DNA of 64,000 bases from Antedon mediterranea (Eukaryota; Animalia; Echinodermata), in contig NC_092674.1 of assembly GCF_964355755.1 (NCBI RefSeq), positions 8,680,001-8,744,000 on the forward strand. Direction: 5' to 3'. The translations under genes and the position numbers were made by a program. Positions 1-54,400 of the stretch are shown here, piece by piece (position 1 is the first letter of the stretch; each line of letters begins with the position of its first letter). Below the pieces are notes generated by a model, which searched no databases, was not told the DNA's origin, and worked only from the letters and a program-made list of their open reading frames with translations.

Positions 1-1274
1 GCGCTTATCGTGGTGAATCGGTTAATTGTCTTTCTATTTTTGCCAGACTCCGTTGATACAAATTGGGGAAAACCCAATATTTTCGCTGAAAAGTTAGGAG
101 TCTTCCATTTGTTTTGGCCTCACGATCGATCGAAAAGTGGGCGAATTACAGGTGAAAAACAAAAATATCAATCCGCGCGCAATGCATTTTGGGATTTATA
201 GCGGGCCGCTATAATTATTAGAATCGACTTGTTTTTCACATTTTTAACCGTTTAAAGACGAAAAAAGTTATCGCAATAGGACCATATAGTATTATCAATA
301 AATCATCTTCTCTTCACCACACCCACAAAAAAAAACATGTTTTGTCAAAAATACAAATTGCAATTTGAAACAACTAAAGATGGGTATTTCAGTTGAAATT
401 GTGCAAATGTGGCTTCGCATGCTGCAATGCAGCTAAAAGTAAAAGGACGTCACGTTAAAGAGAATGTTTTTGTTTCTGCTTGCGTGCTCATGATTTTACA
501 AAATGTTTTCAGAGGGATGATGATGATGGTTGCGATCGGTGGTACAGAAAATAAAATAATTCCGATATTGTTCCTGATAACAAAGAAGCAGATTAAAACT
601 GTGTAGTTGTTTATTTGACCCATTTGGCTTAGATTCCTATATGGCCTAGAGGACTTTCATAATACTACCTACTCACTAGCGGTCTAACTAAAATACAGTT
701 AGTCTAGAGTAGTAGTTTAATACACTACCTGGCTCAGGCCATCCATATCCTCCTTCATCGTTACCACGTGGCATCGTGCAGATGTACACTAACCCAGCTT
801 ACTAGCTAACTACACTCCCCACCCACCCTAGCTCTAGCTAGGTATGCACTGCGCTGCCACTAGGCCTAGCCTATTTTGGGTCTCATGTCTTGCAGCATCT
901 GAAAATACATACAGTAGGCCCTACTAATACTGTACATTATTATTTTTTTTATTGACACTGGAAGTATCTAGGCTTTCCTGTTCTGTTACAATGAAATATA
1001 TTATTTATTATCCTCAGCAGTGAAAAAAAATATATTTTGTTGTTGAATATGCCATGATTTTAAACAAAAAACACTCTCAGCAAGTTTGCTTCATTAATAC
1101 GTCATTTTACTTTAGGTGCATGCGAAGAAGTAGTCACCGTGTTTGACAAGGGCATCATGTTGATTTTGAAGAAAGAAGAGAAGGAATAGTTTATATCAAA
1201 TTCTCAAATGTATTGCAGTTACAAATAATTATAATTTAGAGAATCCATTCTTTTCTCCCATTTTTTTATACTAG

Positions 1275-1500
1275 ATTCAGCTTCGTGGATACCAGTTTGC
1301 AACATTTTACTTGGAAGCTAGGGAGTATGCTCTTGGTATAAAATGGGTACAGAGCTACCTAGCTGTTAAACATAGTGATAGCAGAGCTCACAAATTACTT
1401 GGCAGTCTTTATGAGGCAGTTAAGGACTATGGGAAGGCTATCGACAGTTATAAAAAATCATTGGAGTTTAATGAGACCCAAAAAGAATTGATGTTAAGAA
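1275..1500 (+). CDS. RANBP2: RanBP2 exon, N-terminal TPR region
   Basis: AG acceptor at 1273-1274 and GTGAGT donor at 1501; [18 protein letters not shown]...[38 protein letters not shown] is TPR-like and matches the Nup358 N-terminus. Confidence 0.9.
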
Positions 1501-2040
1501 GTGAGTGTTAAAACTTGTATGAATTTAATAATTTAACCAATCATGATGCAATGGATTGTCTGAACTACCGCTTGTGATTGGTCAACTTACAATATGTATT
1601 TCGTCCAAGTAGAAACCAAGCTTTAGCATGCAAATGTTATGAAATGTTTGCAATGTGTGTGCAAACAGTACACTAATGGTTTATATCATTACATCTAGAT
1701 CACATTGGCTACAAGTGCAGCCGAGTGTGTATCCACCCAATTTATTAGCGAAATTATAAACTACATGCCATTTCCTGCAATTCCTTTAATAAAATTCATG
1801 TTTCTTCAAAACATTTAAAAGTATGATAATATTGGAATGGGACTCTCATTAACAAAATTTTTAGCATTTAAGCTACTAACAGAGTTGTACTGTATTACAG
1901 CGCATCACGTATGCAAAACCCAGGAGAGCAACAAATCGCTCTCCTCAAATCACCGAGGAGAGCAATTCGCTCTCCTTGCAAAAATTTTAAATCGCTCTCC
2001 TCAAATATTTATGTTGAAGTTGAAGGATGGTCGCCCCCCA

Positions 2041-2071
<31 letters not shown>

Positions 2072-33953: not shown

Positions 33954-35473
33954 ATGGCATCTAAAGAATTGATTGAAGTAATTGATGCAGCAGCACTTGA
34001 GTGTCCTTTATGTATGAACCACTTCACAAGCCCAAAGATTCTAGCATGTGTTCATTCATTCTGTCTTGAGTGTCTTGAGAAATGGATGAAGAAAAGCAAT
34101 GGTGTACTCAGCTGCCCAACATGTCGTGAAGTCTGCCAGATTCCAGAAGGAGGACTTCAAAACTTGAAGAATAACATATTCATCAGTGGCTTGTTGGACT
34201 ATGTCACTACATTAGAAGAGAAGACCGCTCCAACTTGTAGTCTTTGTAGTACAGCAACATGTTTCTGCTGTCGAGATTGTGATGAACAAATTGCACGTCT
34301 TGCAGAGATATCCATGCAAAAATGAAGATATCACAACATCATCGCATCATCACGATGGAAGAATATACTGTTATCAACCCTGTGGAACATTTGGCTTCTA
34401 AATCTGTATATTGTTGCAACCATAATATGCCACTTCATTTCTTCTGTGGCAGCTGTAAGGTTCCAGTATGTGTAGGCTGTACATTAGTGGAACATCCAAT
34501 ATCTGATGGTCATAACATAATAAATATAGAAACTGCATTTGAGTCATTCGCAAAACTTTCAGAAAGTTTTATAAATAAAGCAGAAGAAAATTTGATTAAG
34601 TTTCATGACATTGCAAAGCAACTCAAAATAAAAGAGGAATTGGAAATGTCTAATTACAAAGAGTGTGAAGTAAAAATCACAGAAGAAGCTAACAAGGCAC
34701 ACCAATTGATTGATCGTTATAAGAAAGATCAACTCCAAGACCTTGAATCATCTCACCAACACAATCTTAAGTTAATCAGTGCCAATGAAAGTGAGGTTGA
34801 ATTGGCTATTGCTAAATTTTCTAGTACACAGGGAATTGTACGTACCTTGATACATAGCCCAAACCATGCTATGGCATTAAGATCAAGTTCTGATGTTACC
34901 AAACGAATGGACGAGCTTGTAGAACAAGATAACATTTCTGATGATATTCTCACACCAAATTTGGTGAAATATAAGAATACCAGATTTGAAGTGAAGACTG
35001 TTGATATTTTACATGGCAATGATGATTATGAAGCGATCATGACTTTACCAAAAGCCAGTCTAAAGACTGAAGATAGAATCAAAAACTGGTTATGGAAAGA
35101 TCTTGCCAAGTTGTGGACTTTCAACAAGGATACATATCCAAAGTGGAAAGAACATGAAGGTCATGTTGTCACATTTTGTCATACAAACTCTGGTAAGATG
35201 CAAATGTTAGTATTGAAAATTGAAATCTGTATTAGTCAGACAGTCACAGCAGACAGTGAGATGAAAGCAGTGAAGTCATCAGGACATGCCTGGGTCTGGA
35301 GTGATGCGGAAATGAAGAAATATGCACTCATATTCAAGGAGCCACAGTTCGCAAGAAAAATTAAAGATGATTTTGACGAGTATAAAAAGCTTGCTAATGA
35401 AGTAGAAGTAACAGCAAATGAGAAGCAGCAAACAAAGAAACAACCAAAAGAAACAAACAGAAAAGGTTTGTAA
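33954..35473 (+). pseudogene. TRIM-RanBD chimera copy 1: RING, B-box1, B-box2, coiled coil, diverged Ran-binding domain; one 1-nt frameshift near 34290
   Basis: C3HC4 RING (CPLC..CVHSFCLEC..CPTC) and B-boxes; the C-terminus aligns to RanBD1 (YEAIMTLP..KDLAKLWTFNKD..AWVWS). The two ORFs join if one base is restored (CDEQ-x-CTSCRDIH). Likely 5'UTR intron 33590-33932. Confidence 0.85.
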
Positions 35474-35599
35474 ATTTATTACTTTATTAAGTACCTTTAT
35501 CTCAAACCCATTGCTTAAACATAGAAAGGGGAGAGAGGGATGTTAAGTTAATGAATGAAATTCTATATTCACAAATTAATTAATCTATTTTAATCATTC

Positions 35600-38572
35600 T
35601 GTTCCGGACAGTCTACTAGTGGTACCACTGCCTCCTCTCGAACCACAAGCTTCCGATTTCGACAGACTAGTGTTTTGCCTACCTTTTCTTTTTGTAAAAC
35701 TACTACAGCTATAAAACCTTGCTTCTCTTGGCAGCCAACAACTGCTAGTGACAGCCAACAAACTACTGGAATTTCATTTGATGTTGATTCAACTAGTAAA
35801 GAAGTGCAACAGAAAGCATTACCTGATTCAGCTGGTGTTAATTTTGGCAAATCAATGGTAAATAAAATGTAACTTTCTTCCCAGATACAGTATGTTCTAT
35901 AAGATAATGGTGATGGTTTATTTTATAATTAATTTGAACTGTAGTTATTCAGAGATAATGACAGTCTTCAAAGGATTTCATATGTTACATTAATGTTTCT
36001 ATTTTAAACTTTTCCTGATTAAACTTTTCCTGACAAGTTCAAACCAAAAGTAGGAACATGGACATGCGACACTTGTCTTGTTAATAATGCTCCTGACACA
36101 GTTAAATGTCTTGCTTGTGCTACACTCAAACCAGGAGCAGCACCACCTCAATCAGCAGCTGCATCAACTAAACCTTCCGGAGCTACTGGATTCAGGTTTG
36201 TCGTTCCAACTAGTTCACCACAAACTTCAAAATTCAGTTTTGGTGCATGTTCTGGTGCATGTTCTGGTCCTGTAAATGATGTTAAATCTCAGTCTGGTTT
36301 TTCTTTTGGAAAGCCAGCAGATGTTGCAGACAGTAAATCTTCAGAATTTTATTTTGGACAGTCCACTGGTGGCTCATTCGGACAAGCTAGTGGTAAGCCT
36401 ACCTCAGGCTTTTCCTTTGGTAAATCTGATGATGGTAACAAAGCAAACTCAACAACTAGCAAGCCATCTGGGTTCTCTTTCGGTCATACAAGTGACAGTA
36501 GTCAGCAACCACCAACTGGTGGATTTTCATTTGTTGCTGATTCAAGTAAAACAGCATCCCCAGTCCAACCGAAAGCAGTACCTATTGTCACTACTGATGA
36601 TACTGCTGAAAAATCAATGGTAAACAATTTCAATATTCTTTCAATATATTTTGTTTCGTAAAACAATATCACTATTTTGCTTTGATGACCAATTGGGAGA
36701 TAATTTCTTTTTGATGTGCCATGCTTCCTACAAAACACTTCCCAACTCTTTTATTATTTAGTAAATAAATATAATACCTTTATTAATTATCTTAAAACTT
36801 GGTATTTCAGATTTTAGCAGAACGATTAAAACCTAAACCCGGATCCTGGTCTTGTCCTACATGTTACTGCCAGAATTCTACCGAACAGAAGAAATGTCCA
36901 GCATGCCAAACCTGCCAACCGGGTAGTCAACCAGAAGCATCTAGTTCAACTGCACCTTTTGGACAGTCCACTGGAGGTGCTTCCCTCCCCTCCACAGGCT
37001 TCTCATTCGGACAAGCTAGTAGTAAGCCTACCTCAGGCTTTTCCTTAGGTAAATCTGATGATGGTAACAAAGCAAACTCAACAACTAGCAAGCCATCTGG
37101 GTTCTCTTTCTGTCATACAAGTGACAGTAGTCAGCAACCACCAACTGGTGGATTTTCATTTGTTGTTGATTCAAGTAAAACAGCATCCCCAGTCCAACCG
37201 AAAGCAGCACCTATTGTCACTACTGATGTTACTGCTGAAAAATCAATGGTAAACAATTTCAATATTCTTTCAATATATTTTGTTTCGTAAAACAATATCA
37301 CTATTTTGCTTTGATGGCCAATTGGGAGATAATTTCTTTTTGATGTGCCATGCTTCCTACAAAACACTTCCCAACTCTTTTATTATTTAGTAAATAAATA
37401 TAATTAATTATTAATTATCTTAAAACTTTGTATTTCAGACTTTAGCAGAACGATTAAAACCTAAACCAGGATCCTGGTCTTGTCCTACATGTTACTGCCA
37501 GAATTCTGCCGAACAGAAGAAATGTCCAGCATGCCAAACCTGCCAACCGGGTAGTCAACCAGAAGCATCTAGTTCAACTGCACCTTCTAGCAGTTCTTTC
37601 CAATTTGGCAGCAGTTCAGCTTTCGGACAATTGCAAAGAAGTAGCCAAGAAGGTGCTGTAGCACCAACATCACCTACAAAGACTTTCTCATTTGGTTCTT
37701 CTGGAAAGGCATTTTCACAATACTCTTTTGGTGAAGGTGGTGAAACTACTGACGCCACTTCAAAACCTGTCTCAACTGGATTTACCTTTGGGGCGACACC
37801 AGCATCCAGTGGGTTCTTATTTGGAAATCTTTCATCACCGGAAAAGACCGGCAGCCCAAGTTGTAAATTTTCTGAGATACCAAAATCATTCACCTTTCAA
37901 TTCAAAATAAATCCTCAGGAAGCAGCAAATGTACCACCAGCATCTCCAACAAAATCACTTGGTATTATTCATTTTGAGCCAGTTGTTCAACTTGATCTGG
38001 TGGAGCTTACAACTGGAGAGGAAGATGAAGAAACAGAGTTTTGCCATCGAGCAAAGATGTACCGATTTAACAAGAAAACCAATGAATGGAAAGAACGTGG
38101 TTGCGGTGACATTAAAATACTAAGACATAAAGTAACTGGACTATACCGCCTTTTAATGAGACGAGAGAAAGTTCTGAAGTTATGTGCAAACCATTTCATT
38201 TTCCCAGAGATAGTTCTTCGACCAAATTCAGGTTCTGATCGGTCTTGGGTCTGGACAGCAATGGATGCTTCTGATGATGGACAAGTAAAATCTGAATTGC
38301 TGGCAGTTCGGTTTAAGACTGCTGAGACTGCTACGAAATTCAAAGCAGCATTTGAAAATGCAAAGGAAGCTGTCAAGAAGATTAAAAGTATTAAGAAATC
38401 TGAGCCAGCAGAAGTAAAAGAGACACAGGAGATAAATAAAGATGAAGTGAAGGAGATCGAAAATGAAGAAGGAACAGAATACCACAAAATGGTGGAATTT
38501 AAAGAAGATGAAGAATATGAAGATGACGACGACGATGATTATGAAATAATTAAATTTATCTTTGATTTATAA
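35600..38572 (+). pseudogene. Duplicated RanBP2 ZnF/FG/RanBD2 exons downstream of TRIM copy 1
   Basis: Degenerate FG exon ~35600-35857; ZnF1 exon 36023-36619 (acceptor AG mutated to AA); hybrid ZnF2/FG exon 36811-37248; ZnF2-RanBD2 exon 37439-38572 cut off in the acidic tract. Intron sequence is also duplicated. Confidence 0.85.
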
Positions 38573-41360
38573 AAGAAAAAAGGGTTTACGAATTACTTTC
38601 TGAAATCAAATGCATAAGAATGGGTTTACTAAATTACTTTCTGAAATCAAATGCATAAGAATGGGTTTACTAATTACTTTATCATATTATATAATTTTCT
38701 AATAGATGTTTTTTATACAGTTTTCTAAATACATGAACATTTGTGGAGTTTTTAAGTTCAACGGAGAGTTTATTCCATATTAAAATTTCTTTATTTGATA
38801 ACACATTTGTTTGAACATAGTTTTCCTTAAATTGGTAATAAAATGTTCCATGCTGTCTGGTATTATAGGTATGAATATCTTTATTTTATTTAAAATACCG
38901 TTGGATTATAGAAGGAAGTTGTTGTGGGCTTTGTACATTATTATGGCAGTATTTAATTCAATTACATCAAATATATTTAATGTTTTAAATGTATACAAAG
39001 TGGGTTTAGTGTGAGCTAAATAGTCAGCTTTATAGACAATTCTAATTACCCTTTTTTGTAACAAAAATAAATGCTGTAATGTACTTTTATATGAGTTACC
39101 CCATATTTCACAACAATAATTAATGTATGGTAAAACTAATGAATTATACAGAATAAATAATACACTACTTTCAAGTAGTTTTCTTAATCTATAGCCTAAG
39201 TTATACTGATGTTTTTAGCAATTTTTGTGTTTAACATGTTTTTTCCAATTAGCTTACAATCAATTTCTATTCCAAGAAATGTAGTGCTATAAACCCGGTC
39301 AATTTCAACATCGTCTATTGTTACTTTGGTTTCACATGTAACGTTTTTGGAATGGAAGATTATATAATTTGTTTTTTAACGTTTAACGAAAGTTTATTCA
39401 CTGCAAACCATATGTGAAGTTTATTTAACTCATTACTGACAATACTGCAAACTTGTTTCACATTTTTGCCAGAGCAAATAAGATTTGTACCATCAGCAAA
39501 TAAGATAAAATTAAGCAATGGCGACACACGATAAATATCATTTATGTACAGCAAAAATATGGAGGGCCCCAAAATTGAACATTGCGGTACACCGCATATA
39601 ATTTCTATAGGATCCGATTTGATAAATAACTTTTTAACCACCTTGAAGCCACACTTCGAATTCCATAATATTCTAATTTTTTTAGTAAGATGTCATGGTC
39701 AATGGTGTCAAAAGCTTTCTTGAGATCTATAAAGACGCCAACCGAGTAATTAGACTTGTCTATTGCAAATGTAATGTCTTCATTAAGTTTAAATAACTTA
39801 TTTGGTTTTCGCCCAAATTATTCTACAACCCATGCCTTAATAAGCCATGGGTTGTAGAATAATTTGGGCGAAAGCCAAATTGTCCACTATATAATAAATT
39901 GCGTTTGTTTATAAATGTCATTAATCTATTGTTAAACATCTTTTCTAATATTTTTGAAAATTGCGGAAGTAAAGAGATTGGCCTATAGTTGTTAAAATCT
40001 TGTTTATCACCAGATTTATAAACAGGTATTACCTTTGCACTTTTGAGCATATTTGGAAATGTTCCACATTCTAATGACAGGTTACATATACGCGTTACAG
40101 GTTGAACAATTTCATATACAGGTATTACTCTTTTAACCATATACATATCGATATTATCAAGTCCATAAGAATATTTACTTTTAAAATTTAGAACTTCCCT
40201 TAAAACTTCCTCACATGAAACATTGTCTAAAAATAATGATTGTTGTACACTTTCATTCATATATGATCTAAAACTTGTATCATCAATATGTGGAATTTGC
40301 TTAGCTAAATTAGGTCCAACATTTGAAAAACCATTTGCAATATTTTTGGGATGAGACACAATTTCATTTCCCTGTTTAAATTCTCTTGGTAAATTATTTG
40401 TGGTATTCTTTCTGTTTGCGAAATCATTTAATATCTTCTAAGTACCCTTGATGTTCTTTTCTTTCTCTTTCAAGATTTTACTGTAGTATGTTTTTCTGCA
40501 TTTCTAAGAATTCTTGTTTGTTTTTATATGTTTTGTATTTATTTGCTGAAGCTAAACTTTGGTATTTTTAAGTCCCGTAGTAAACCATGGTTTATTTTCT
40601 CTTTTTTTAGATATATTAATTTTTTTCAATGGCAAATTTTTATTATACAAATCAGTAAAAACATTTATGAATTGATTATATGCCAAATCCGGGTCATTTA
40701 CATTTTCCAATATTTGCCAATTTGTATTTCTTAGGTCAGATTAAATTTTTTTATATTCTCGTCATTAATTACTCTTTTAAAAATAAAATTGGGTTCTTGT
40801 ATAGTTTCCACATTATAGTCAACAAGAGAAAAAACAAGTTGATCACTTATATCATTTATCAAAATACCACTTTTCATGGAGACTTCAATCTCTGGCGTAA
40901 ATATGTTGTCTATAATAAGCGAAGCACTAGTCTCAGTTACCCTTGTTGGTTTTGTTATAAGAGGGAAGGTGCCATTACTAATAATATATCCACAAAAAGA
41001 CTTGTGTACTTGTTACTTTCATATTTCAAAAGATCAATATTATAATCACCACATATGTATAATTGTTTATCTCTCTTTTCATGAAAAATGTTCAAATCCA
41101 AATCACTACCAGGTGCTCGGTAAATACAACTGACGATTATATTTCTTTTTGTATCATTGACAATTTCAACAGAAACACATTCGCAGCAATTTTTCTTTCT
41201 AAATGATACATTTTGTATTGTTTTGTGTTTAATTGAGCTTTTATAAACAATGCTATCCCACCCCCAGATTTGTCTTCCCTCGATGTAAAGTATGATTCAT
41301 AGCCATTTAAACTAAAGACATTTTCTTTGCTATCACTTGCCCATGTCTCAGATATTGCTG
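38546..41360 (-). mobile_element. Degenerate non-LTR retrotransposon (CR1/L2-group LINE)
   Basis: Minus-strand remnants: endonuclease AISETW (~41340-41360); RT NYRPISLLPQFSKILEK, QFGFR, GVPQCSILGP, LFADGT; several frameshifts. Confidence 0.9.
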
Positions 41361-41383
41361 ACTACAGCTATAAAAACCTGGGT

Positions 41384-42625
41384 TATCTTTCAAGATACCA
41401 AAATCATTCACCTTTCAATTCAAAATGGATCCTCAGGAAGCAGCAAATGTACCACCAGCATCTCCAACAAAGTCACTTGGTATTATGCATTTTGAGCAGT
41501 TGTTCAACTTGATCTGGTGGAGCTTACAACTGGAGAGGAAGATGAAGAAACAGAGAATTGCTGGCAGTTCGATTCAAGACTGCTGAGACTGCTACTAAAT
41601 TCAAAGCAGCATTTGAAAATGCAAAGGAAGCTGTCAAAGAGAAAAATTTAGTAAGAAGTCTGAGCCAGCAGAAGAAGTAAAAGAGACATAGGAGATAAAT
41701 AAAGATGAAATGAAGGAGATCGAAAATGAAGAGGCAACAGAAGACCACAAAAGGGAAGAAGTTGAACATGACGAAGTATATGAAGTTGACGATGATTATG
41801 AAGACTATGAGGATGAAGATGACAACGATAATGGTGAAGATGACGACGATGATGAAGAAGATGCAGAAGAGGAAGAAAAACCGAAAGAAACTCAGGTGAA
41901 AAAACAAATAGAAAAGTAGGAAGAAACAGGAGGAAAGCAAAAGATAATACTACAGGTATTGTTTGTTATTCCAAGGAAGAGTGAAATTTCACTCTTCCCT
42001 GGTCATTCCTTTTCCTTACATATTCAATGTGGTTGTATAAGCCTAATTCCATCTCATGTTAGCCCGGTTTGTGTACATAACACTTACCTAAATTAATATC
42101 AGCAGTCAGAAAAACAATGAATGACGATAATTATATAAGCGTAGCTCAACATTCAGTCCTGAAAAGAATTCTGGATCAAGTTCAAAGAGTTCTGATCAAT
42201 GATTTTATACAGAAGAAGAACGGGATGATCTGCAGTTTAAACCAGTTGTCACCTTGCAAGAGGTTGAGGTAAAGACTCATGGTGAAGAAGAGGAGCAAAA
42301 GTTGTACTGTCAACGAAGCTTTTCCGTTGGAATCGTGTGACGAGTTCCAGTGGAAAGATTGGCGTTGGAGAGATTAAGATCTTAAAAGACAATGGCTTGA
42401 ATCGATGTCGTATTTTAATGCGCAGAGATCAAGTATTGAAAATATGTGGCAACCATAATCATCACATCAGAGATGGAGTTAAAACCGAATGCAGGGTCTG
42501 ACCGATCCCTTAGAACGCTATATGCATCTGAAATGGAACTGCAAGCTTCAAAACTTCGGATATTGCTTCCGAATTTAAATCAGTCTTTGAAAAATGTCAA
42601 AAGAGTCCAATCACTTAAAGTAAGT
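41384..42625 (+). pseudogene. Third, decayed copy of the RanBP2 3' end (deleted RanBD2, acidic tract, frameshifted RanBD3)
   Basis: Nucleotide similarity to 29880-31505 with an internal deletion at ~41555 and many indels; 3'UTR-like similarity continues to ~44500. Confidence 0.9.
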
Positions 42626-42771
42626 TGCTCATCATACACTCCTTCATAATAGGCTCATTCACCAAAACACCTTTCCTACCACACTCAATGTTGCAATCAA
42701 AGTAGAGTATGGCAATCCTTCATGATAAATGTTTTCATATTTTAAACATAATGTGTTACTGTACTATCTGT

Positions 42772-42881
42772 TTTTAGTCGCGTGGACGCGACTCTATAGT
42801 TTACTATGTCGGTCGGTCGGTCTGTCGGTCCAGTATCACTATGCGTTTTAGCACGCGGCTTATGGCTGTTGGCCTTGTTTT
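42772..42881. mobile_element. Helentron/DINE-like short insertion
   Basis: T-run flanks, palindrome agtcgcgtggacgcgact and (gtcg)n microsatellite; absent from the parental 3' region. Confidence 0.5.
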
Positions 42882-43129
42882 TATTAAAAATTAATTTACT
42901 ACTAAAAATGTTGCCTAGCAACTAACTCTTTTGAATATTTATGATTTTGCATGAGTGTATCCTGTGAAGTTTTGAACATTTATCAAGGGAGAAAAACGAA
43001 TACCATACTAAAAAGGTTAAATAAATAAAAGAAAACAAACGTGGACAATTACAATGGTTATAGACGTGAACAGTGTATCATAGATTACACACATTTGTAT
43101 CATAGATTACACACATTTGTATCTTTTGG

Positions 43130-43390
43130 AATGGAGTTGTGGGTTGGTGGTTATGATGCTTGTCTACCACTCCAAGGGTCCTAGGTTCAAATCCCGTCAC
43201 ATGTCAGGATTTTTTCTAAGGACCAAATTACTCCACTCCCAAAGACTTGTAATAAGACTTTGTTTATGTAGAGCATCTTGTGTATATGTTTGTCTTGTGA
43301 ACCTCCGATGGTCCCTAATGATCAGCAATAGCTGGATGGATCACCACCCTCATTAAAAATATGGTTTTAAAAAAAATCAAAAAAAAAATC
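43130..43390 (+). mobile_element. tRNA-derived SINE
   Basis: A-box tgggttggtgg, B-box ggttcaaatcc and A-rich tail; absent from the paralogous parental region near 32005. Confidence 0.7.
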
Positions 43391-43398
43391 TATATTAA

Positions 43399-43945
43399 AG
43401 ATGTATTGCCCCTTTGACTAATTCCAAAAAAATAAAAAATAAAATATTTCGAAAGAAAGGTGGGTCATTTTAAAGTATCATAATAGTTATTAACTATCAC
43501 CAAAACTTTTTCGAAAAAAAAAAATTTAACTGAAATACAGACTTTTTTTTGTTAAAAAAATAACTTTGACTTCCAGTCAAAGTTTTCAATCAAAACATAT
43601 CCCATAATGAAACGCACTTGTTTGGCTACTCTGTATGCATAATCATAAAACTTCCTCATGATCTGGGTGAAAATACCTTCTTAACCGTGACGAGTTGTAA
43701 ACAATCCTAATTTAGCATATGCATAATGCGTACTCATGGTTTGAAATCTTTGTTTACTTTCGCTCGTGACGATTTTCCAGATGAAATGTAATTAAACTAA
43801 TTTACCTGTTAATTACGTAAACTTGTTGTTTTTGGCTCGAATTTTCGACTTAAAGTGAATAACTTTAATATTACTTTGATATGGCCATTTTACATTTAGA
43901 ATATTTTGACCTTCATTTTTTTGTGTTTCAAGGGACAATACATCT
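43399..43945. mobile_element. Kolobok-like non-autonomous transposon
   Basis: TTAA duplication; TIR agatgtattgcccctt / aagggacaatacatct. Confidence 0.75.
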
Positions 43946-44959
43946 TTAATATAAGATAATAATATGAAATTCCATTTAGGAAAAAATAAGACAAGGATGC
44001 TCTTTGTAAAGGAATGGTATAAGTACTTATGTTTTTATTATTTAAGAGCAAAATATATTAATTTACCTCATATTATATCAGCAATTTATTGGGATCTACT
44101 GTTCCCTTTACTTATAGCTTTTTTAATTTTTGCTGTATTTTACATGTATATGGATAAATAAAAATGAGTAATTCTGCTAGAATTCTTACTAGATGAAGTC
44201 TTACTTTTCTTTTATCAATAGTATATACAGTAACAAGGGAACAAATAGATGGATTTTCGATTTGATTAGGCCTATATCAATACATTATTTTTTTTAAAGA
44301 CACATCATTTGCATTGTTTCAGAGATTGCCCAAAATATGTACATAATAATATTGAGGGGATTTTATTTATATTCTATCCATGTACATGTTGGTGCTACTT
44401 TACTTCGGCACCTAATTTGAAATCGTTGGGCACATGGTGAGCTCAAGCAATTGCGGGTGCAATATGGGTGCATACCTGATGGAAACCAACCTCAACAAAC
44501 TGCTTTAATCTTTAATGAAAGGTTCATTATTTCAGAATATAAATTAGCATTTGTCAGAGTGTATTAGTAAAAGATGAAAATAATTATATAGGCCTAACTA
44601 ATACGTTTCGTATAAATAGAGTTTTGGCCAACTTGGCTTACCATAGTATGTAACCTGGGAATTTCCAGAACAATGACGAACAGTTTTTTAACACTCTACA
44701 TTCTGATCCTTGGACCCTTTACCACCCCTTCATATTATTGAGAGGAACCACCACCACTCCTACCAGGAATTTGATTTCAAAGTAAACTTCTTTGGTAAAA
44801 CGATTTGTATATTTTGTTATTGCTCGTTCATAACATCTGTCTGTTGGTCTTTCAAACTAGGCTAGTAGGCCTAGCTAGGCCTAGGCCTACTAGGCTAGCT
44901 AGTAGGCCTTCTAGTACTAGTAGAACTAGTCTACATTAGGATATTGCTTTTTTTAGGCG

Positions 44960-45992
44960 CCTTTTATGTAAATGGTGACGTTTTTTTCCATATAAAATAA
45001 AAGCTATACATTTTAAAGTAAAACTGGTGTGTGTATGTATGGCTACGTATCAGTTGGCAAATGAGATTGTTTTCTAATGTATTGAAAAGCTCGCAATCCT
45101 GTCGGTGAAAGCATCTAACAGTTGGAATGTATAAGGCTTAATTTAGGCTAGTGTCTTACCGTAATCATTCACAACAAGTAGCTGATAAATACCAAGTATT
45201 TATAAGAGACACTAGCTGCCCAACATGTCGTGATGTCTGCCAGATTCCAGAAGGAGGGCTTGAAAAGCTACAGAACAATATGTTCATCAATGGCTTTATT
45301 GGACTATGTTACCACATTGGAACGGAAGACCGCTCCAAATTGTAGCCTTTGTAGTACAGAAGCAAGTTTTTTCTGTCGTGACTGTGATGAGTTATATTGT
45401 ACAAGTCACAGAAATGACCACACAAAAATGAAGATGTCACAACATCATTGCATTATTACAATTGAAGAATATACTGTTATCAATCCTGCATAGTACATAA
45501 GCTGTTGACTGTTTCTACATTAGCTGGTGTTGATTTTTATTTACTACATAAGCTGGAGGTTTTACTACATAAGCAGAAGATTGCTCTACATTAACGGTTT
45601 TTTCGACATTAGCTGGCGTTTTCTACATTAGCGGTTGTAACAAGCCTTGTGTGGGGTATGTATGATAATAATATATGCAGAAATAAGAAAAGTATAATAT
45701 GCATATGATATTGAATGTAGTGGACACATCAAAACATTAAAACTAATGTCTCTTATAAATACTTGGTATTTATCAGCTACTTGTTGTGAATGATTACGGT
45801 AAAACACTAGCCTAAATTAAGCCTTATACATTCCAACTGTTAGATGCTTTCGCCGACAGGATTGCCCGCTTTTCAATACATTAGAAAACAATCTCATTTG
45901 CCGACTGATACGTAGCCATACATACACCAGTTTTACTTTAAAATGTATAGCTTTTATTTTATATAGAAAAAACGTCACCATTTACATAAAAG
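44960..45992. repeat. ~250-bp inverted repeat pair (44960-45211 / 45748-45992) enclosing a TRIM fragment
   Basis: The arms are reverse complements with few mismatches. Confidence 0.9.
45213..45490 (+). pseudogene. TRIM fragment (end of RING plus B-box1), near-identical to 46973-47245
   Basis: SCPTCRDVCQIPEGGLEKLQNN / CSLCSTEASFFCRDCDELYC with one frameshift. Confidence 0.9.
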
Positions 45993-46816
45993 GGGGAATC
46001 CCGGATTATTTAGTTTTAGCGGCAGCGCCTGCATGGCATGCGTGCAGCTCAATGCGATTGTTTCTTCCAGCCAAAACAAATATCGGTTAATTTTTCAACC
46101 AATAAAAGTGCGCATGATCAGTTATTACCAAACAACCAGATGCCCAATCACATTGCAACAATTTTCACGTCGCATTTATCCAATAATTATCTGATTTGAA
46201 TGAGAAAAAAAAGAATTTCCGCGTAATTGATTGAACCCTCTTCTTGAATATTTGGACAAACAAATAAACAATGCATCGCGCGTCATAGCATGTTTATTGA
46301 ATTCTTCAACTACAGTTTAAGTTTTAAAAAATCAAGCTAAGATACATAAGTTGATAGAAATACAGATCTATTTATCAACATAGTACTGTAATGTTGAACG
46401 CATTTTTGTTTGCGCTAGCAACCACGCAGCGCCATCTATCATTGTGACGTCACACTGCAGAACTCTATAAATCCTGACGTATGCAGTGCCCTACTGCATG
46501 GAAAACATTACTGTTGCACGAAAACAGCGGATTGCTCATTCTTCTGATATATACTGTATTCTTTGCCCTATATATAGGGTACTACTGTACTAGGAACTAC
46601 TACTAGGCATGCTGAAACGACGCAGGGTATGGAACGCCCACATTATGCGCCAACTAGGCCAAATATTTATGTTATATGTTAATTTCGCTTGGTATTTCTA
46701 ATTATGTATAAACTTTGCTCTATCAATGGAAAGATCTATAAGAAATGTATGAGTATAATAATTAGTTTAATTTATTATATAAAACTTTTACTTTTCACAG
46801 GATTTTTTCATCTTCC

Positions 46817-49000
46817 ATGGCATCTAAAGAAGTAATTGAAGGAATTGAATCTGCTGCACTTGAGTGTTCTTTATGTATGAACCGCTTTACAAGACCAAAA
46901 GTTCTGACATGTGTTCATTCATTCTGTCTTCGATGCCTTGCGGAATGGGTGAAGAAAAGCGATGGGGTGCTCAGCTGCCCAACATGTCGTGATGTCTGCC
47001 AGATTCCAGAAGGAGGGCTTGAAAAGCTACAGAACAATATATTCATCAATGGCTTATTGGACTATGTTACTACATTGGAACAAAAGACCGCTCCAAATTG
47101 TAGCCTTTGTAGTACAGAAGCAAGTTTTTTCTGTCGTGACTGTGATGAGTTATACTGTACAAGTCACAGAAATGACCACACAAAAATGAAGATGTCACAA
47201 CATCATTGCATTATTACAATTGAAGAATATACTGTTATCAATCCTGTAGAGCGTTTGGCTTCTAAATCTGTATATTGTTGCAACCATAATATGCCACTTC
47301 ATTTCTTTTGTGGCAGCTGTAAGGTTCCAGTATGTGTAGGCTGTACATTAGTGGAACATCCAATATCTGATGGTCATAACATAATAAATATAGAAACTGC
47401 ATTTGAGTCATTCGCAAAACTTTCAGAAAGTTTTATAAATAAAGCAGAAGAAAATTTAATTAAGTTTCATGACATTGCAAAGCAACTCAAAATAAAAGAG
47501 AAATTGGAAATGTCTAATTACAAAGAATGTGAAGTAAAAATCACAGAAGAAGCTGACAAGGCACACCAATTGATTGATCGTTATAAGAAAGATCAACTCC
47601 AAGACCTTAAATCATCTCACCAACACAATCTCAAGTTAATCAGTGCCAATGAAAGTGAGGTTGAATTGGCTATTGCTAAATTTTCTAGTACACAGGGAAT
47701 TGCACGTACCTTGATACATAGCCCAAACCATGCTATGGCATTAAGATCAAGTTCTGATGTTTCTGAACGAATGGACGAGCTTGTAGAACAATATAACATT
47801 TCTGATGATATTTTCACACCAAATTTGGTGAAATATAAAATTAACACACACCAAACCATCATTGTTAACGCCGCTGACTTTAGAATTGAACATGCTGATG
47901 CCCCAAATTTAACAAATCCTCAACCTGTTATGTATTACCCACCACACACACCAATGTTTCCCCCTCAATTCATACCAGGCTATCTACCGGAAATTCCAAT
48001 ACCTGGATTGGGGGAACAGCAATACATACCTTCCATGATGAGCTCAACCCCGGGACCACACTATCAAGGAGAGGAAGCATACGAAGCAGAAGGTGATGCG
48101 TATAATATAGATCCGCATGTGTCACTAAAACTGCGAGACAACAATGTGTTCTCCACCCCAGCACGCAATATTGCACAGAGTAGAACACCAGAGGCTAGTA
48201 TTTCTTCAGAATCCACACGTATTGATGAAAGATTTGCAGGCTTCTCTGGACTCAATCAAACAGGAATGCCTCAAGTGGCACCAAATGGAAGTGCTGGCAT
48301 GAAACCTTCCATCTGCCAACCAAAACTTAACATATCACAACCAGCATCCTCACCAGTTGCTGTGAGTAAAGATGAAACTGCTCCAGAGAGGTCTGCCAGT
48401 GATGCTCCATTGTTACGTAAAATACTAATAGGGTCAGATGTTGACCCACCTCCTGTTGTTACACAATCTTTTCCTGCTTTCTCATCTGTTTCTTCAAACT
48501 CCAGGTTTGGCGGAGGAGACAAGTTATCTGAAAAATCTGCTGTTTCGCCTAATTTTACATTTGGTACTCGTCTGGAGTCTGCGAAAGCAAAAGAAGCTGA
48601 GCATACTCCAGTTTTCACTCCAAGTGCATCTTTTGGAAGTAAATCTGATGCAAGTGGAAACCCACAAACAGTAACCTCTGGCTTTTCATTTGGAGGTGGT
48701 AATATCTTTACCCCAGTGCCTACTAATCCAGCTTCAACCATCCAGTTCAGTCAATCCTCTTCTATATTCAACCAACCAGCAGCTCAGCCCACAAGCAGAG
48801 GACCTTTTAGTCAGCTAGTAGCAGCTACTGGTTTCAAGGGTCTCAATTCTAACTCAACAAAGGAATTTTTGCTGGGCTTAGTTTTAGGTGCTCAAACCCC
48901 ACCAACAGCAGCACCTCAGCCTAGAAAACCTACCGAAGGCTCTTTATTTTCAGGTCAGGAGTCTGTAGTATCCAGTTCAACCTCAAAAAGCAGCGGTTAG
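46817..49000 (+). CDS. TRIM-RanBP2 chimera copy 2: intact RING, B-box1, B-box2, coiled coil fused in frame to the RanBP2 Pro/FG exon (727 aa if unspliced; donor at 48996)
   Basis: Uninterrupted ORF with AG acceptor at 46799-46800 before the ATG. The junction near 47839 (LVKYK|INTHQTII) switches from TRIM sequence to a near-identical copy of 25758-26937. Confidence 0.9.
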   Translation: MASKEVIEGIESAALECSLCMNRFTRPKVLTCVHSFCLRCLAEWVKKSDGVLSCPTCRDVCQIPEGGLEKLQNNIFINGLLDYVTTLEQKTAPNCSLCSTEASFFCRDCDELYCTSHRNDHTKMKMSQHHCIITIEEYTVINPVERLASKSVYCCNHNMPLHFFCGSCKVPVCVGCTLVEHPISDGHNIINIETAFESFAKLSESFINKAEENLIKFHDIAKQLKIKEKLEMSNYKECEVKITEEADKAHQLIDRYKKDQLQDLKSSHQHNLKLISANESEVELAIAKFSSTQGIARTLIHSPNHAMALRSSSDVSERMDELVEQYNISDDIFTPNLVKYKINTHQTIIVNAADFRIEHADAPNLTNPQPVMYYPPHTPMFPPQFIPGYLPEIPIPGLGEQQYIPSMMSSTPGPHYQGEEAYEAEGDAYNIDPHVSLKLRDNNVFSTPARNIAQSRTPEASISSESTRIDERFAGFSGLNQTGMPQVAPNGSAGMKPSICQPKLNISQPASSPVAVSKDETAPERSASDAPLLRKILIGSDVDPPPVVTQSFPAFSSVSSNSRFGGGDKLSEKSAVSPNFTFGTRLESAKAKEAEHTPVFTPSASFGSKSDASGNPQTVTSGFSFGGGNIFTPVPTNPASTIQFSQSSSIFNQPAAQPTSRGPFSQLVAATGFKGLNSNSTKEFLLGLVLGAQTPPTAAPQPRKPTEGSLFSGQESVVSSSTSKSSG

Positions 49001-49309
49001 TTTTTTGTTCTATTTTTCTTTTATTGCTTAAATAAGGGAGTATATAAATGTTAATTGATCAACAAAATCTTCACCAATATGTTGAATAATAAAAACCTGC
49101 ATCTTCTCCACATACAGTAGGTAAAAAATGATGGAGTTACATATTGAAAATCTTCCAAATAGTATATTGTTATGCAGTATATAGATATATCTAATGATTT
49201 GAAACTGTTTTCCTTAAGAAGATCTGACAAGCAAGACCCAGTTGGCTTGTGCTGCAATGAACAATTTTCTTAACCCCATTTAATTGTACTGTCTTATTTT
49301 TTAAATCAG

Positions 49310-51250
49310 AGGAGGATGATGTTATATTGATTTATGAAAGAAAACCAACTCCAGCACAGATTGCGATGGCTCTCAGATTGAAGCTGCCTCCAACATTCTA
49401 TCTCTATGAATACAAGAAACCGTGCCCTGGTTGTATTGGTTGTGAAGATATCAATCTGGCAATGTTGTATAAAAAGGAAAACAAAGTTTTCAAAGATGCC
49501 ACTCAGGCCAGTACTACTATCTTGCAAGACCCTAAACCAACACAAGAATGTAAGTTTTTCGTATATACAGAAAAATGTTTTTGAAAGGTATTTTTAGACC
49601 TTGTTTATATTTAATTTTTTATATATATATATATATATTCTTTTTCAGCAACTTCTACAGAACCATTGATGTTTGGAGGAGGATCGTCCACCTCTTTGAC
49701 CTTTGCGTCTGTCACAGATGGCAAACAAAATACTCCAGATTTTATGAAACAACGTAATTCACTTTTTACTTTTAAATTTTTACAATTAACTCGGTACTGA
49801 TTTGTTAAAAATGTATTGTCCCCAAAAAACATGAAAAATGAAGATTAATTAAATCAGATTTGAATAGGTTATTTTGTAGTTTTAATAAAGTTAATCACCT
49901 CCGTAGAAAAAAATAATGTTTTCACTTATAACATAACATAATAAATAAATTACAGTTTTTTTCAGATAAATAAATTTTGTTTAGATCCAATTTTTTTTCA
50001 AAAGCCCCTTTCTCACAGAGCTGTGTGCCAGGAATATTGCGGGAATATACCATTACCATGCCGGTATGGTTTTCTGTGAGAACGGGTCGTCTTGGCATCA
50101 TGCCGGCATCGACATGACCTGCTTTAGACCTGTAATATTCTAGGTATATTCTGTGAGAACGTAACGCTGTTATATTCCGGGGTTATATTTAATTCCTGGT
50201 CGAGTCTTTGACACCTTGCGCGGTCAAATGTATCACTTTGGCGCCGATTCAATTCAATTAACAATAATAATGTCGAACTGGAGGGATAATGAGATAAGAG
50301 ATGTGCTTAAATAAGGCGACAAAAAGAAATTTGTAGCATAATTTATAGGCCTAGCCTCTAGGCCATAGCTCTTTTGTTGGTGCCTGACCCTTTGTCACCT
50401 TGTAAATTGTACAGCCTTCTAAGGTGTTTTACATATTGCTGATGACGGCTAATTAATTGCTGCTGGCTGTACCTGTATAATATATGCACAATATACTGTA
50501 CATAGCATGTATTGCATAAATATGCTATTAAGGAAGATAATAACCTGTAACTTAAAATAAGTACAAAAATACAACAACAAAAATAATAACAATAAAGGAC
50601 GCCCTCAATAATTATTTTGTCGGAGACTTTTATTGGCCGAATATGCCCGACTCCTTTCTCACAGAAAGCCAGTATATACCGGTTATATTTCCGGCACGAT
50701 AGTCCGATGAGAATGGGTATATGCGGGTAACGATACCGGCATGACGCCAACATAATACCGGTATATTGCAGGCACATCTGTGAGAAAGGGCTAAAGTGGA
50801 TAACTATTATGTGATATTAAAAAAAAATATTGTAAAAAATTTTTTAGGGGGACAATACATCTTTAATAGAACAACTTAAATAATAAAGTTCACTTTATTT
50901 CAGAATCTGCAAAGGCATTCTCTTGGACAAGTGCTGGCGCACAGCTGTTTAGCTCTAGTGCAGGAGGCGATGATGAGTACGACCCACATTATGAAACTAT
51001 TGTGACTTTGCCTGAAGTTGTCGATCTTAAAACTGGAGAGGAAGACGAAAACTGCCTTTATAAAGATCGTGCCAAACTGTACCGATTCAACAAAGATATA
51101 AATCAGTGGAAAGAGCGTGGAGTTGGAGATGTCAAATTCATGCAGAATAAGAACACTGGTAGGATACGTGTACTAATGCGTCGTGATCAGGTATTGAAAG
51201 TGTGTGCTAACCACATGATCACAGCAGACCTTGATATGAAAGCTATGTAA
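49310..51250 (+). CDS. Downstream exons of chimera copy 2: IR motif exon 49310-49549, exon 49649-49753, truncated RanBD1 exon 50904-51250
   Basis: Near-identical to parental exons with intact splice sites; a 195-bp deletion in RanBD1 ends in TAA at 51248-51250. Confidence 0.65.
49809..50862. mobile_element. Kolobok-like element with nested MITE (~50004-50792)
   Basis: TTAA duplication at a site that is empty in the parental intron (~27742); TIR aaatgtattgtcccc / ggggacaatacatct; inner TIR gcccctttctcacaga / tctgtgagaaagggc. Confidence 0.85.
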
Positions 51251-51527
51251 AAACCAAAAGAGGTTTGTACATTATTTAGCTTTAATGGGGAACTGAAAGT
51301 GTCTTCTGCCTCATAATGTTTTACAAACATTTTTATATAAATCTATATTTATATAATATATATAAATGAAAATAATAATACATATACTTTATAATTATCC
51401 ATAATTTACGATTATTAATTAGTTTATTAATGTGTAGTGTATAATGTAGTTATTCAGAGATTATGACATTAGTCTTCAAAGAATTTCGTATGTATTAATG
51501 TTTCTATTTTAAACTTTTCCTGATTAG

Positions 51528-52977
51528 ACTTTTGCTGACAAGTTCAAACCAAAAGCAGGAACATGGACATGCGACACTTGTCTTGTTAACAATCCTCCTG
51601 ACACAGTTAAATGTCTTGCTTGTGCTACACTCAAACCAGGAGCAGCACCACCTCAATCGGCAGCTGCATCAACTAAACCTTCCGGAGCTACTAGATTCAG
51701 GTTTGATGGTCCAACTAGTTCACCACAAACTTCAAAATTCAGTTTTGGTGGAGGTTCTGGTCCTGCAAGTGATGTTAAATCTCAGTCTGGTTTTTCTTTT
51801 GGAAAGCCAGCAAATGTTGCAGACAGTAAACCTTCAGAATTTTCTTTTGGAAAGTCCACTGGTGGTGCTGCTGCTCTCCCCTCCACAGGCTTTTCATTCG
51901 GACAAGCCAGTGGTACGCCTACCTCAGACTTTTCTTTTGGTAAAACTGATGAAGGTAATAAAGCAGACTCAACAACTAGCAAGCCATCTGGGTTCTCTTT
52001 CGGCCAGACAAGTGACAGTAGTCAGCAACCACCAACTGGTGGATTTTCATTTGTTGCTGATTCAAGTGAAACAGCATCCCCAGTCCAACCGAAAGCAGCA
52101 CCTGCTGTCACTACTGATGTTACTGCTGAAAAATCAATGGTAAACAATTTCAATATTCTTTCAATATAATATATTTTGTTCCGTAAAACAATAATACTAT
52201 TTTGCTTTGATGGCCAATTGGGAGATAATTTCTTTTTGATGCGTCATGGTTCCTACAAAACACTTCCCAACTCTTTTATTATTTAGTAGATAAATATAAT
52301 ACCTTTATTAATTATCTTAACACTTTTTAGACTTTAGCAGAACGATTAAAACCTAAACCAGGATCCTGGTCTTGTCCTACATGTTACTGCCAGAATTCTG
52401 CCGAACAGAAGAAATGTCCAGCATGCCAAACCTGCCAACCAGGTAGTCAACCAGAAGCATCTAGTTCAACTGCACCTTCTAGCAGTTCTTTCCAATTTGG
52501 CAGCAGTTCAGCTTTCGGACAGTTGCAAGGAAGTAGTCAAGAAGGTGCCGTGGCACCAACAACACCTACAAAGACTTACTCATTTGGTTCTTCTGGAAAG
52601 GTATTGCCGCAATTCTCTTCAAGGTGGTGAAACTACTGGCGCCACTTCAAAACCCGTCTCAACTGGATTTACCTTTGGGGCAACACCAGCATCCAGTGGA
52701 TTCATATTTGAAAATAACCAGAATCAAAATGCATCCGAAGAACAAGCTCTTAATCTTTCATCACCAAAAAAGACAGGCAGCCCAAGCTGTAAATTTTCAG
52801 AGATACCAAAATCATTCACCTTTCAATTCAAAATGGATCCTTATGAAGCAGCAAATGCACCACCAGCATCTCCAACAAAATCACCTGGTATTCAGCGATC
52901 ACCTGGTCTAATCAAATCACCTGGTCTAGATAAGTCAGGAGATGATTCTTATTACAAAGATGATGACAATGATGGTC
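51528..52977 (+). pseudogene. Duplicated RanBP2 ZnF1 and ZnF2/FG exons (51528-52139, 52331-~52977)
   Basis: Near-identical to 28604-30056; frameshifting deletion at ~52620; homology stops just before RanBD2. Confidence 0.9.
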
Positions 52978-54129
52978 AGTTTTTAGACTGGCTATTGCTT
53001 CGTAATCATCATCGCCATTTAAGATATTAATGAAGAGTCACAACATCATTGCATTATTACAATAGAATATACTGTTATCAATCCTGTAGAGCGTTTAGCT
53101 TCTAAATATGTATATTGTTGCAAACATAATATGCCACTTCATTTCTTTTGTGGTAGCTGTAAAGTTCCAGTATGTTTAGGATGCACACTTGTTGAACATC
53201 CTATATCTGATGGTCATAAAATAATCAATATAGAAAATGTATTTGAGCTATTCACAAAACTTTCAGAAAGTTTTAATTGCAAAGCAGCTGAAAGAGAAAG
53301 AGGAATTAGAAATGGTGAATTACAAAAAGTGTGAAGCAAAAATCACAGAAGAAGCTGACATCAATTGATTGATCATTATAAAAAAGTCCAACTGCAATCT
53401 CTCGAATCATCTCACTGGGTCCGTGGAGGGCCTAATCCAGTTAAACTTGATGACCAGTAATAATACATTTAACATTTAATCAGTGCCACTGTAAGTGATG
53501 TTGAATTAGCGATTGCTAAATTTTCCAGTATGCAGGGAATTGCACGTACCTTGATACATAGGCCAAACCATGCTATGGCACTAAGTTCAAGTTCCGATGT
53601 TTCTAAACAAATAGGCCAACTTGACAAACAACGTAACATTTCTGATGATATGCTCACATTAAATTTATCTGAATACAATAATACCAGATTTGAAGTGAAG
53701 CCTGTTGGTATTTTACACGGCGATGATTATAAAGCAGTAACCATGCCTAAAGATGGTCTAAAAACTGAAGAGGAAAGTGAAAACTGTTCTTTGAAAGATC
53801 TTACCAACTTATGGTGTTTTAATAAGGATGAAAATAAGTGGATAGAATATGACGGTGATACTGTCAAATTTATTCATACAAAGAAAACTGGTAGGATGGA
53901 AATGCAGATACTGAACATCAGTGAAAACAGCATAGTCACAGCAGACAGTAAGATAAAGGCTATTCCATCATCAGACCATGCCTGGGTTTGGAGTGAAGCA
54001 GGAATGAAGAAATATGCACTAATATTTAAGGAGCCAATATTGTTAGCACGAGAATTCAAAGAAAATTTGATAAGACGAAGAAAAAGCTTGTTAATAAAGT
54101 ACTTGAGGAAGAAAGGGTTCCACTTCTAG
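52978..54129 (+). pseudogene. TRIM-RanBD chimera copy 3, 5'-truncated and frameshifted
   Basis: B-box2 (CKHNMPLHFFCGSCKVPVCLGC), broken coiled coil, then diverged RanBD (KDLTNLWCFNKDENKW..DHAWVWSEAGMKKYALIFKEP) collinear with copy 1. Confidence 0.88.
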
Positions 54130-54301
54130 ACCCCCTTGAGCCAGAAGAAAAGGTTTGTAAATCCAGTACCATTATTGAAAATGGAAAATAAAAATAATAT
54201 TATCATAAGTGATAAAAAATTTACATAAATACCTAAAATTGATGACTCGAAATTTAGTTATTCACAGATTCAGTTATTCTATTTTAAATTTCTTTTATTA
54301 G

Positions 54302-54400
54302 AAATAAAATCACATGGCAGAAAATTGGAAATGCCCTCTTTGCCGTAATATTAATAGGATTAGTATATTGTATTGTCGTATTTGTTGTGGCAAAAGACCA
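54302..54400 (+). pseudogene. Diverged RanBP2-type zinc-finger exon belonging to chimera copy 3
   Basis: WKCPLCRNINRISILYCRICCGKRP fits W-x-C-x2-C-x3-N-x6-C-x2-C; the preceding acceptor resembles the parental ZnF1 acceptor. Confidence 0.7.

Follow-up and report, generated by a model that had tools for sequence, protein, structure and literature searches.

We analyzed a 64,000-nucleotide (nt) stretch of the genome of the feather star Antedon mediterranea (NCBI RefSeq assembly GCF_964355755.1, contig NC_092674.1, positions 8,680,001 to 8,744,000 of the forward strand; hereafter the window, in whose own numbering all coordinates are given). Downstream of the gene for the nucleoporin RanBP2/Nup358, the window carries three copies of a TRIM-type RING-B-box-coiled coil (RBCC) module fused to RanBP2 sequence: to a divergent derivative of the first Ran-binding domain (RanBD1; the derivative is called RanBD*) in copies 1 and 3, and to the proline/phenylalanine-glycine (Pro/FG) exon in copy 2. 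These TRIM-RanBP2 fusions are real and not a product of mis-assembly. The sequence supports past selection on an old fusion (RBCC-RanBD*-FG*), whose reading frame was kept open for a long time. Working members of the group may be fast-turnover defense ligases with a pore-derived target-binding end (bait), a reading to which we give a probability of roughly 45%. The features of the three copies are as follows (ZnF, zinc finger):

33954..35465, + strand: copy 1 exon 1, with RING, B-box 1, B-box 2, coiled coil and RanBD* (35018-35401); frameshift at 34289
35612..35857, +: old FG exon (FG*), from the RanBP2 ZnF1/FG exon; 26% diverged, open, 6/6 indels in frame, one FG left
36038..36619, +: younger ZnF1/FG exon duplicate; 5% diverged, open
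36811..37248, +: hybrid exon, ZnF2 fused in frame to the second FG block
37439..38572, +: copy 1 last exon, with ZnF2, FG, a RanBD2 duplicate and a shortened acidic tail; HFEPVV and EWKERG intact
46817..48995, +: copy 2 exon 1, an intact RING-B-box-B-box-coiled coil plus the RanBP2 Pro/FG exon; Pro/FG part about 2% diverged
49310-49549, +: copy 2 IR1-M exon
49649-49753, +: copy 2 downstream RanBP2 exon
49808-50863: 1.05-kb insertion between the downstream RanBP2 exons of copy 2
50904-51262, +: copy 2 truncated RanBD1, with a stop at 51248-51250
51528-52139, +: copy 2 ZnF1/FG exon
52331-52977, +: copy 2 ZnF2 exon, the last; -5 frameshift at 52619
53029..54129, +: copy 3, an RBCC-RanBD* remnant without RING and B-box 1

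Self-comparison of the window gave a tandem mosaic, and the view of the initial annotation that repeated duplication had produced real chimeras held up in read contigs. The best source of contigs for the window was a short-read run, possibly of the source sample (X1). One X1 contig of 1137 nt (34868-36004) bridged the copy 1 junction with 0 differences, and another of 179 nt (47732-47910, 1 difference) spanned the copy 2 junction, 108 letters lying on one side of it and 71 on the other. RanBD* and the old FG exon were also found in a run of organism B (X7) at an identity of at least 85%, in up to 7 contigs per site and with indels in frame; there the copy 1 junction was covered by overlapping contigs, no single listed piece having 31 letters on both sides. 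An assembly artifact might be suspected in a region rich in 90-99% duplicates, where no single contig spans the whole stretch. It is extremely improbable and already largely refuted, as the X1 contigs bridge both junctions, organism B has the same derived RanBD*, and copy-specific sequence cannot come from a mis-join because it is 26-29% diverged from the parent. X1 depth was ∼150 for copy-specific contigs vs. 430-510 for collapsed RanBP2 exons; the copies may lie on one haplotype only. Near letter-for-letter matches at a depth of 2-8 in X10 and X11 (organisms C and D) were not used as evidence for other species. A 768-nt contig from X9 matched the RBCC for 422 nt and continued for another 346 nt. 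Other joins among FG and ZnF exons were seen in X7 over 35478-37473, suggesting different tail architectures in organism B.

In copies 1 and 3, RanBD* shares one exon with the RBCC (Pfam Ran_BP1 E 1.2e-7 and 2.4e-7, respectively; ∼69% nt identity to RanBD1 for RanBD*). The in-frame fusion claimed at first for these copies has to be qualified, since the RING of copy 1 is frameshifted and copy 3 has no RING or B-box 1. The copy 1 junction lies near 35005-35015 because related crinoid TRIMs align to ∼35005 and then diverge into other sequence. One base is missing at 34289, which puts the RING (33954-34292) out of frame with the remainder. A library of another individual (X5, judged to be RNA by a GT..AG joint and by two exons joined directly in a RanBP2 contig) contains a 736-nt frame-intact TRIM contig that has this base, ends at 34858 and differs from copy 1 at 10 positions; it could be an allele or a close paralog. 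One X7 contig likewise has the base, and frame-intact relatives of copy 1 thus exist. In both X1 and X5, contigs of a related TRIM are missing 136 nt with B-box 1 (34180-34317), so a B-box-1-less paralog exists elsewhere.

Further along copy 1, one surplus base near 35450, close to the end of exon 1 and relative to organism B and the parent exon phase, leaves the natural acceptor of the old FG exon out of phase; the RefSeq model uses a later acceptor (∼35709). The original acceptor AG of the younger ZnF1/FG duplicate is now AA, with an in-frame AG 15 nt further on. RefSeq joins copy 1 into a RING-less model of 1148 amino acids (aa) with 15 FG downstream of RanBD*, in which three younger RanBP2 exons (∼5% diverged) supply three zinc fingers, FG repeats and RanBD2. 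Copy 1 is a 99% match to XP_071950715.1, an A. mediterranea RefSeq model labeled "uncharacterized protein," and its nearest other TRIMs are from Antedon and Anneissia.

Copy 2 exon 1 is a single open frame (46817-48997, 727 codons up to the intron stop) with the fusion point at 47839/47840, in agreement with the in-frame joining of RBCC and Pro/FG exon proposed at first. It has the RING, B-boxes and coiled coil in TRIM order in one frame, the coiled coil being assigned by homology to crinoid TRIMs; for copy 1 this requires the base that the X5 and X7 contigs have, and copy 3 is without the RING. The C3HC4 ligands of the RING are present in copies 1 and 2. The downstream RanBP2 exons of copy 2 (49310..52977) are 1-2% from the parent. 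Its spliced model stops at aa 956 within the truncated RanBD1, and skipping that exon does not rescue the frame (stop at aa 844). The stop lies upstream of further splice junctions, so message decay is expected unless the transcript ends early. Copy 3 is dead: it has frameshifts of -38, -7 and +2, the first two in the coiled coil. All indels in its RanBD* (5/5) are in frame.

Donor gene, age layers and surrounding elements

The donor gene and a decayed duplicate that served as pseudogene control have the following coordinates:

1233..31498, +: RanBP2/Nup358 donor gene, intact, upstream of the chimeras; 5' limit approximate, N-terminal exons from ∼1233 by tblastn
25683-26937, +: RanBP2 3' exon, first of seven
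27251-27490, +: RanBP2 3' exon, IR1-M
27586-27690, +: RanBP2 3' exon
27798-28351, +: RanBP2 3' exon, RanBD1
28604-29212, +: RanBP2 3' exon, ZnF1/FG
29404-30793, +: RanBP2 3' exon, ZnF2/FG/RanBD2
30906-31498, +: RanBP2 last exon, RanBD3
41388..42737, +: decayed duplicate of RanBP2 3' exons (RanBD2 part, acidic tract, RanBD3); 5/13 indels in frame

The intact RanBP2 gene noted beside the chimeras was confirmed: its seven 3' exons (25683-31498) splice to an open frame of 1581 aa with the Pro/FG exon, IR1-M, two zinc fingers and three RanBDs. The gene ends at RanBD3 and has no cyclophilin domain. Its single IR1-M is placed before RanBD1.

The captured RanBP2 exons form three divergence layers, at 26-29%, ∼5% and 1-2%. 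The two old exons (RanBD* 29% and FG 26% from the parent) contain no stop, and 11/12 of their indels are in frame vs. 5/13 in the dead neighboring duplicate (Fisher p 0.011; binomial p 5e-5). Over all RanBP2-derived exons of copy 1 the count is 18/19, with the young FG repeats themselves biased toward in-frame indels. In a neutral simulation, 14% of runs left a 480-nt RanBD1 stretch without a stop at 0.1 substitutions per site, and 3% did so at 0.2. Comparison of RanBD* between copies 1 and 3 gave a dN/dS ratio (omega) of 0.41 (p 0.006 against 1); by branch, omega was 0.29 for copy 3 (p 0.003) and 0.74 for the path to the parent. Four RBCC comparisons gave 0.24, 0.23, 0.15, and 0.51. Pairwise omega of the young RanBD2 and its exon was 0.25-0.38, but the constrained parent accounts for half of that path. 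The copy 2 Pro/FG exon (0.66-0.71) was not different from 1. The old fusion thus shows a dN/dS below 1, three of the four RBCC comparisons lie at 0.15-0.24, and the young FG exons are near 1.

RanBP2 introns are kept in the captured blocks, which are hence duplicates of DNA. The chimeras were likely made by repeated tandem duplication of the RanBP2 gene together with a downstream TRIM neighbor; such junctions would be the direct product of a duplication that begins within RanBP2 and stops within the TRIM. Two other elements lie between the copies:

38909..41296, -: broken reverse-transcriptase (LINE-like) element behind copy 1
44960..45993, strand not assigned: fold-back element with inverted arms of ∼250 nt, enclosing 275 nt of RING/B-box sequence at 98% identity to copy 2

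No target-site duplication was seen at the fold-back element. The insertions at 49808-50863 and ∼43395-43950 have alike short inverted ends and are flanked by TTAA; they may be Kolobok-like. The RanBP2 introns contain a remnant of a long terminal repeat retrotransposon (17205-18056, - strand, a 284-codon frame with an RT_RNaseH match at E 7e-8) and a tandem array in which an 80-nt unit is repeated 12 times at 98% similarity (19418-20388).

TRIM-RanBP2 models in other animals

We searched for related proteins by HMMER with copy 1 as the query and examined the best 150 matches, a search in which the query RBCC favors TRIM fusions. Among these, two non-crinoid proteins have both an RBCC and RanBDs, and each would rank on its RanBD score alone. 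XP_066299091.1 of the amphioxus Branchiostoma lanceolatum, a predicted protein annotated merely as RanBP2-like, has a RING, B-boxes, filamin, FG, IR1-M and two intact RanBDs (28/30 and 30/30 conserved polar positions). It tracks a TRIM2-like relative into the beginning of the NHL region; RanBP2 takes over at residue 476, its blocks swapped in order. CAH1780692.1 of the annelid Owenia fusiformis, also predicted, has an RBCC, RanBDs, zinc fingers, IR1-M, and a Nup98 GLEBS (E 1.3e-17) with FG. Its residues 923-1060 correspond to the Nup98 GLEBS/FG region, so that pieces of two different nucleoporins occur in one TRIM model.

Trees were built by a quick method with SH-aLRT support, from 74 rows for the RanBD and from 36 of 77 candidates for the RBCC. 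RanBD* grouped with RanBD1 of the same genome (97), the amphioxus domains with RanBP2 domains of B. floridae (99 and 99), and the first of the Owenia domains with the second (100). In the RBCC tree, copy 2 fell among the TRIMs of Antedon, and the amphioxus RBCC grouped with a TRIM2-like protein of B. floridae; Owenia was a long unplaced branch. The crinoid, amphioxus and Owenia fusions thus look separately derived.

In a control, none of 68 other RanBD matches (0/68, E 1e-7) carried a foreign Pfam domain, the domains found being native to RanBP2; TRIM was the sole foreign partner among the 70 RanBD proteins scanned (2/70). A Hydra vulgaris protein (XP_065643044.1), at 5271 aa too long for Pfam, was left out of this control; phmmer matched neither a RING nor a B-box to it. 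Nine stretches of this protein match RanBD*. A search of the ESM Atlas with the amphioxus protein returned ordinary TRIM45-like clusters only (<0.8), and a word-based homolog search with the RanBD* region alone gave 76 candidates, none of which scored. One TRIM match (P0118) carries WWE and PARP catalytic domains.

Possible function of the chimeras

Ran recognition depends on HFEPVV, EWKER and basic residues (PMC3045386). We scored RanBD conservation against 70 canonical RanBDs, in which 48 columns were 80% conserved (30 polar, 18 hydrophobic). The RanBD2 duplicate in the last exon of copy 1 has 27/30 of the conserved polar positions and both Ran motifs, and the young copy 1 exons also hold intact FG repeats and zinc fingers. 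These younger FG, zinc-finger and RanBD2 exons are predicted to still bind transport receptors and RanGTP. In RanBD* of copies 1 and 3, 16/18 and 13/18 hydrophobic positions are still hydrophobic, and the contrast in identity between polar and hydrophobic positions was not significant (p 0.13 and 1.0). An alignment-based model of RanBD*, for which the canonical RanBD rows favor this fold, reached a pLDDT of 74.6 with seven-plus strands and a C-terminal helix, and its top Foldseek matches were RanBDs; the single-sequence fold failed (pLDDT 37.7). RanBD* is predicted to be folded (PH-like) but Ran-blind.

In a working chimera, the coiled coil would dimerize the protein and the B-boxes would cluster it, the pore-derived end would catch partners that dock on Nup358, be they viral capsids, viral proteins or complexes of receptor and cargo, and the RING, with predicted E3 activity, would ubiquitinate the caught target. 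The assembly and ubiquitination steps are general for the TRIM family. Younger exons bring back the intact motifs lost by the old fusion, and chimeric copies would be born and lost quickly. We prefer this defense-bait reading because of the past selection, the renewed capture and the recurrence in other phyla.

A number of observations weigh against it. Every copy in the assembly carries at least one lesion, and none encodes a full protein from the RING to an intact RanBD. No transcript was seen across either junction; the X5 contig stops at 34858, before the copy 1 junction, and X5 contigs neither cover 35036-35202 nor cross 47840, gaps that are not counted because contigs cannot show absence. 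A bait is expected to stay similar to the host part. In copies 1 and 3, RanBD* retains 9/30 and 11/30 polar positions and 0/6 arginines, HFEP and EWKER are lost, and the old FG exon retains one FG. The arginine loss can be explained by CpG decay after relaxed selection, without adaptation, because all six parent arginine codons are CGN. No branch omega was significantly >1 (copy 1 RanBD* branch 1.9, p 0.37). For the young FG exons, omega is near 1 (∼0.8-1.0). Amino-acid change in the young exons fits neutrality with an intron clock (p 0.42, 0.84) and departs from it only with a dS clock (p 0.03, 0.02). Frame retention could reflect only the avoidance of nonsense-mediated decay. The amphioxus and Owenia proteins are predicted gene models, and part of the Owenia model may be a true RanBP2 gene mis-joined. 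No finding ties the chimeric genes to infection, and the defense role is one that we infer. The bait idea of the initial annotation is thus weakened for the old domains, in which Ran-binding and FG motifs are lost, and by the lack of a junction transcript in the contigs; the amphioxus and Owenia models strengthen it.

It is quite possible that the RBCC is the sole working part and that the pore exons are passengers attached by the mechanics of duplication, with selection keeping the frame open and the tail folded. This explanation comes close to the defense-bait reading, because the motifs are decayed, all copies are lesioned and a junction transcript was not seen. A duplication from within RanBP2 to within the downstream TRIM would yield the junction automatically, the FG exons evolve at an omega of ∼0.8-1.0, the close paralog XP_071965594.1 (373 aa) is nearly tail-less, and copy 2 acquired two lesions within 1-2% divergence. 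RanBP2 also gave rise to the human RGPD duplicates (PMC6920530). Yet the copy 3 RanBD* branch has an omega of 0.29 (p 0.003), and an early stop with polyadenylation would be an easier outcome than five exons staying open. A passenger tail also leaves unexplained why TRIM is the only foreign partner (2/70 RanBD proteins) and why the Owenia model contains a Nup98 GLEBS.

Alternatively, the ligase might dock on RanGTP and karyopherins via RanBD2, zinc fingers and FG repeats and ubiquitinate transport factors or cargo, as a regulator of host transport; the IR1-M of copy 2 would add a SUMO-ligase motif. The preservation of polar positions in the RanBD2 duplicate (27/30) and in the amphioxus RanBDs (28 and 30 of 30) fits such a role, as does IR1-M in copy 2 and in the amphioxus and Owenia models. 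A housekeeping regulator, however, is usually a stable, single-copy gene; the crinoid copies turn over, are frameshift-polymorphic and have a separate origin in each lineage. We consider a transport regulator unlikely.

Returning to defense, a wider proposal is tentative and rather doubtful: the fusions may form a convergent animal class, in which docking parts of the pore (RanBD, zinc finger, FG and IR1-M of Nup358; GLEBS of Nup98) were placed repeatedly and independently on TRIM ligases as "false pore" traps for nucleus-bound viruses, the feather-star bait being renewed from the adjacent RanBP2 as old copies decay. The lesson of TRIMCyp is that a virus-used host protein fused to a TRIM can become an antiviral sensor. 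Three rounds of capture in the crinoid, together with separate amphioxus and annelid models, make the recurrence testable. If transcripts exist, the nuclear pore would be a repeated source of bait across animals, and the proteins would hint at the pore surfaces used by viruses of marine invertebrates. Even if the tails turn out to be passengers, the locus documents clearly how chimeric genes arise and die through tandem duplication.

Comparison with known systems

The initial annotation knew of no natural TRIM with a RanBD; this does not hold, as zebrafish ftr52 is a spliced RBCC-RanBD-CypA (cyclophilin A) gene, formed with a RanBP2-like gene and carrying a premature stop (Boudinot et al., 2011; PMC3137616). 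It was treated as a probable pseudogene. Like ftr52, the crinoid locus has a natural RBCC joined to RanBP2-derived exons including a RanBD, and ftr52 is also lesioned in its RING exon. ftr52 differs in being a single-copy finTRIM with a cyclophilin domain and demonstrated splicing. The crinoid cluster, known from DNA, has a TRIM2/TRIM56-like crinoid TRIM, no cyclophilin, several copies, and more than one round of capture, involving ZnF, FG and IR1-M. Its RBCC nests among crinoid TRIMs and RanBD* groups with RanBD1 of its own genome, which points to an origin separate from ftr52.

In primate TRIM5-CypA fusions (TRIMCyp), the C-terminal domain was replaced, repeatedly and independently, by a host protein that viruses contact (as summarized in PMC3137616). 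The crinoid genes share this design. TRIMCyp arose by retrotransposition, contains CypA and has shown antiviral activity, whereas the crinoid chimeras arose by DNA duplication with introns and have no CypA; no Pro_isomerase (cyclophilin) match was found in the pieces scanned. Engineered TRIM-nucleoporin fusions do restrict HIV-1, as the initial annotation stated; this holds for TRIM-NUP153C with the NUP153 FG part (PMC3795039). RanBP2 is a lentiviral cofactor, and TRIM-RanCyp constructs have been made (PMC5843284). Together they show that a TRIM carrying part of a nucleoporin is able to restrict a capsid or report on it; unlike the crinoid genes, these are laboratory constructs directed at vertebrate lentiviruses. 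The human RGPD genes, derived from RanBP2, share with the crinoid locus the use of RanBP2 as a source of fast-evolving segmental duplicates, but the excerpted description gives them RanBP2-derived sequence and a GRIP domain, with no RBCC (PMC6920530).

Among mainly open-access texts, zebrafish ftr52 was the one described TRIM-RanBP2 fusion that we found, and none dealt with such fusions in invertebrates or with their recurrence; supplementary domain tables could list them. XP_066299091.1 and CAH1780692.1 resemble the crinoid chimeras: RanBP2 parts (FG, RanBD and IR1-M) stand behind a RING-B-box-coiled coil. They differ in their unrelated TRIM donors and own-lineage RanBDs, the amphioxus protein keeping filamin and the Owenia protein adding Nup98 GLEBS. 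The crinoid locus is TRIMCyp-like in design, is not a TRIMCyp, as it has no cyclophilin, and is of the ftr52 kind. The new element is the recurrence of the TRIM-RanBP2 fusion and not the existence of such a fusion.

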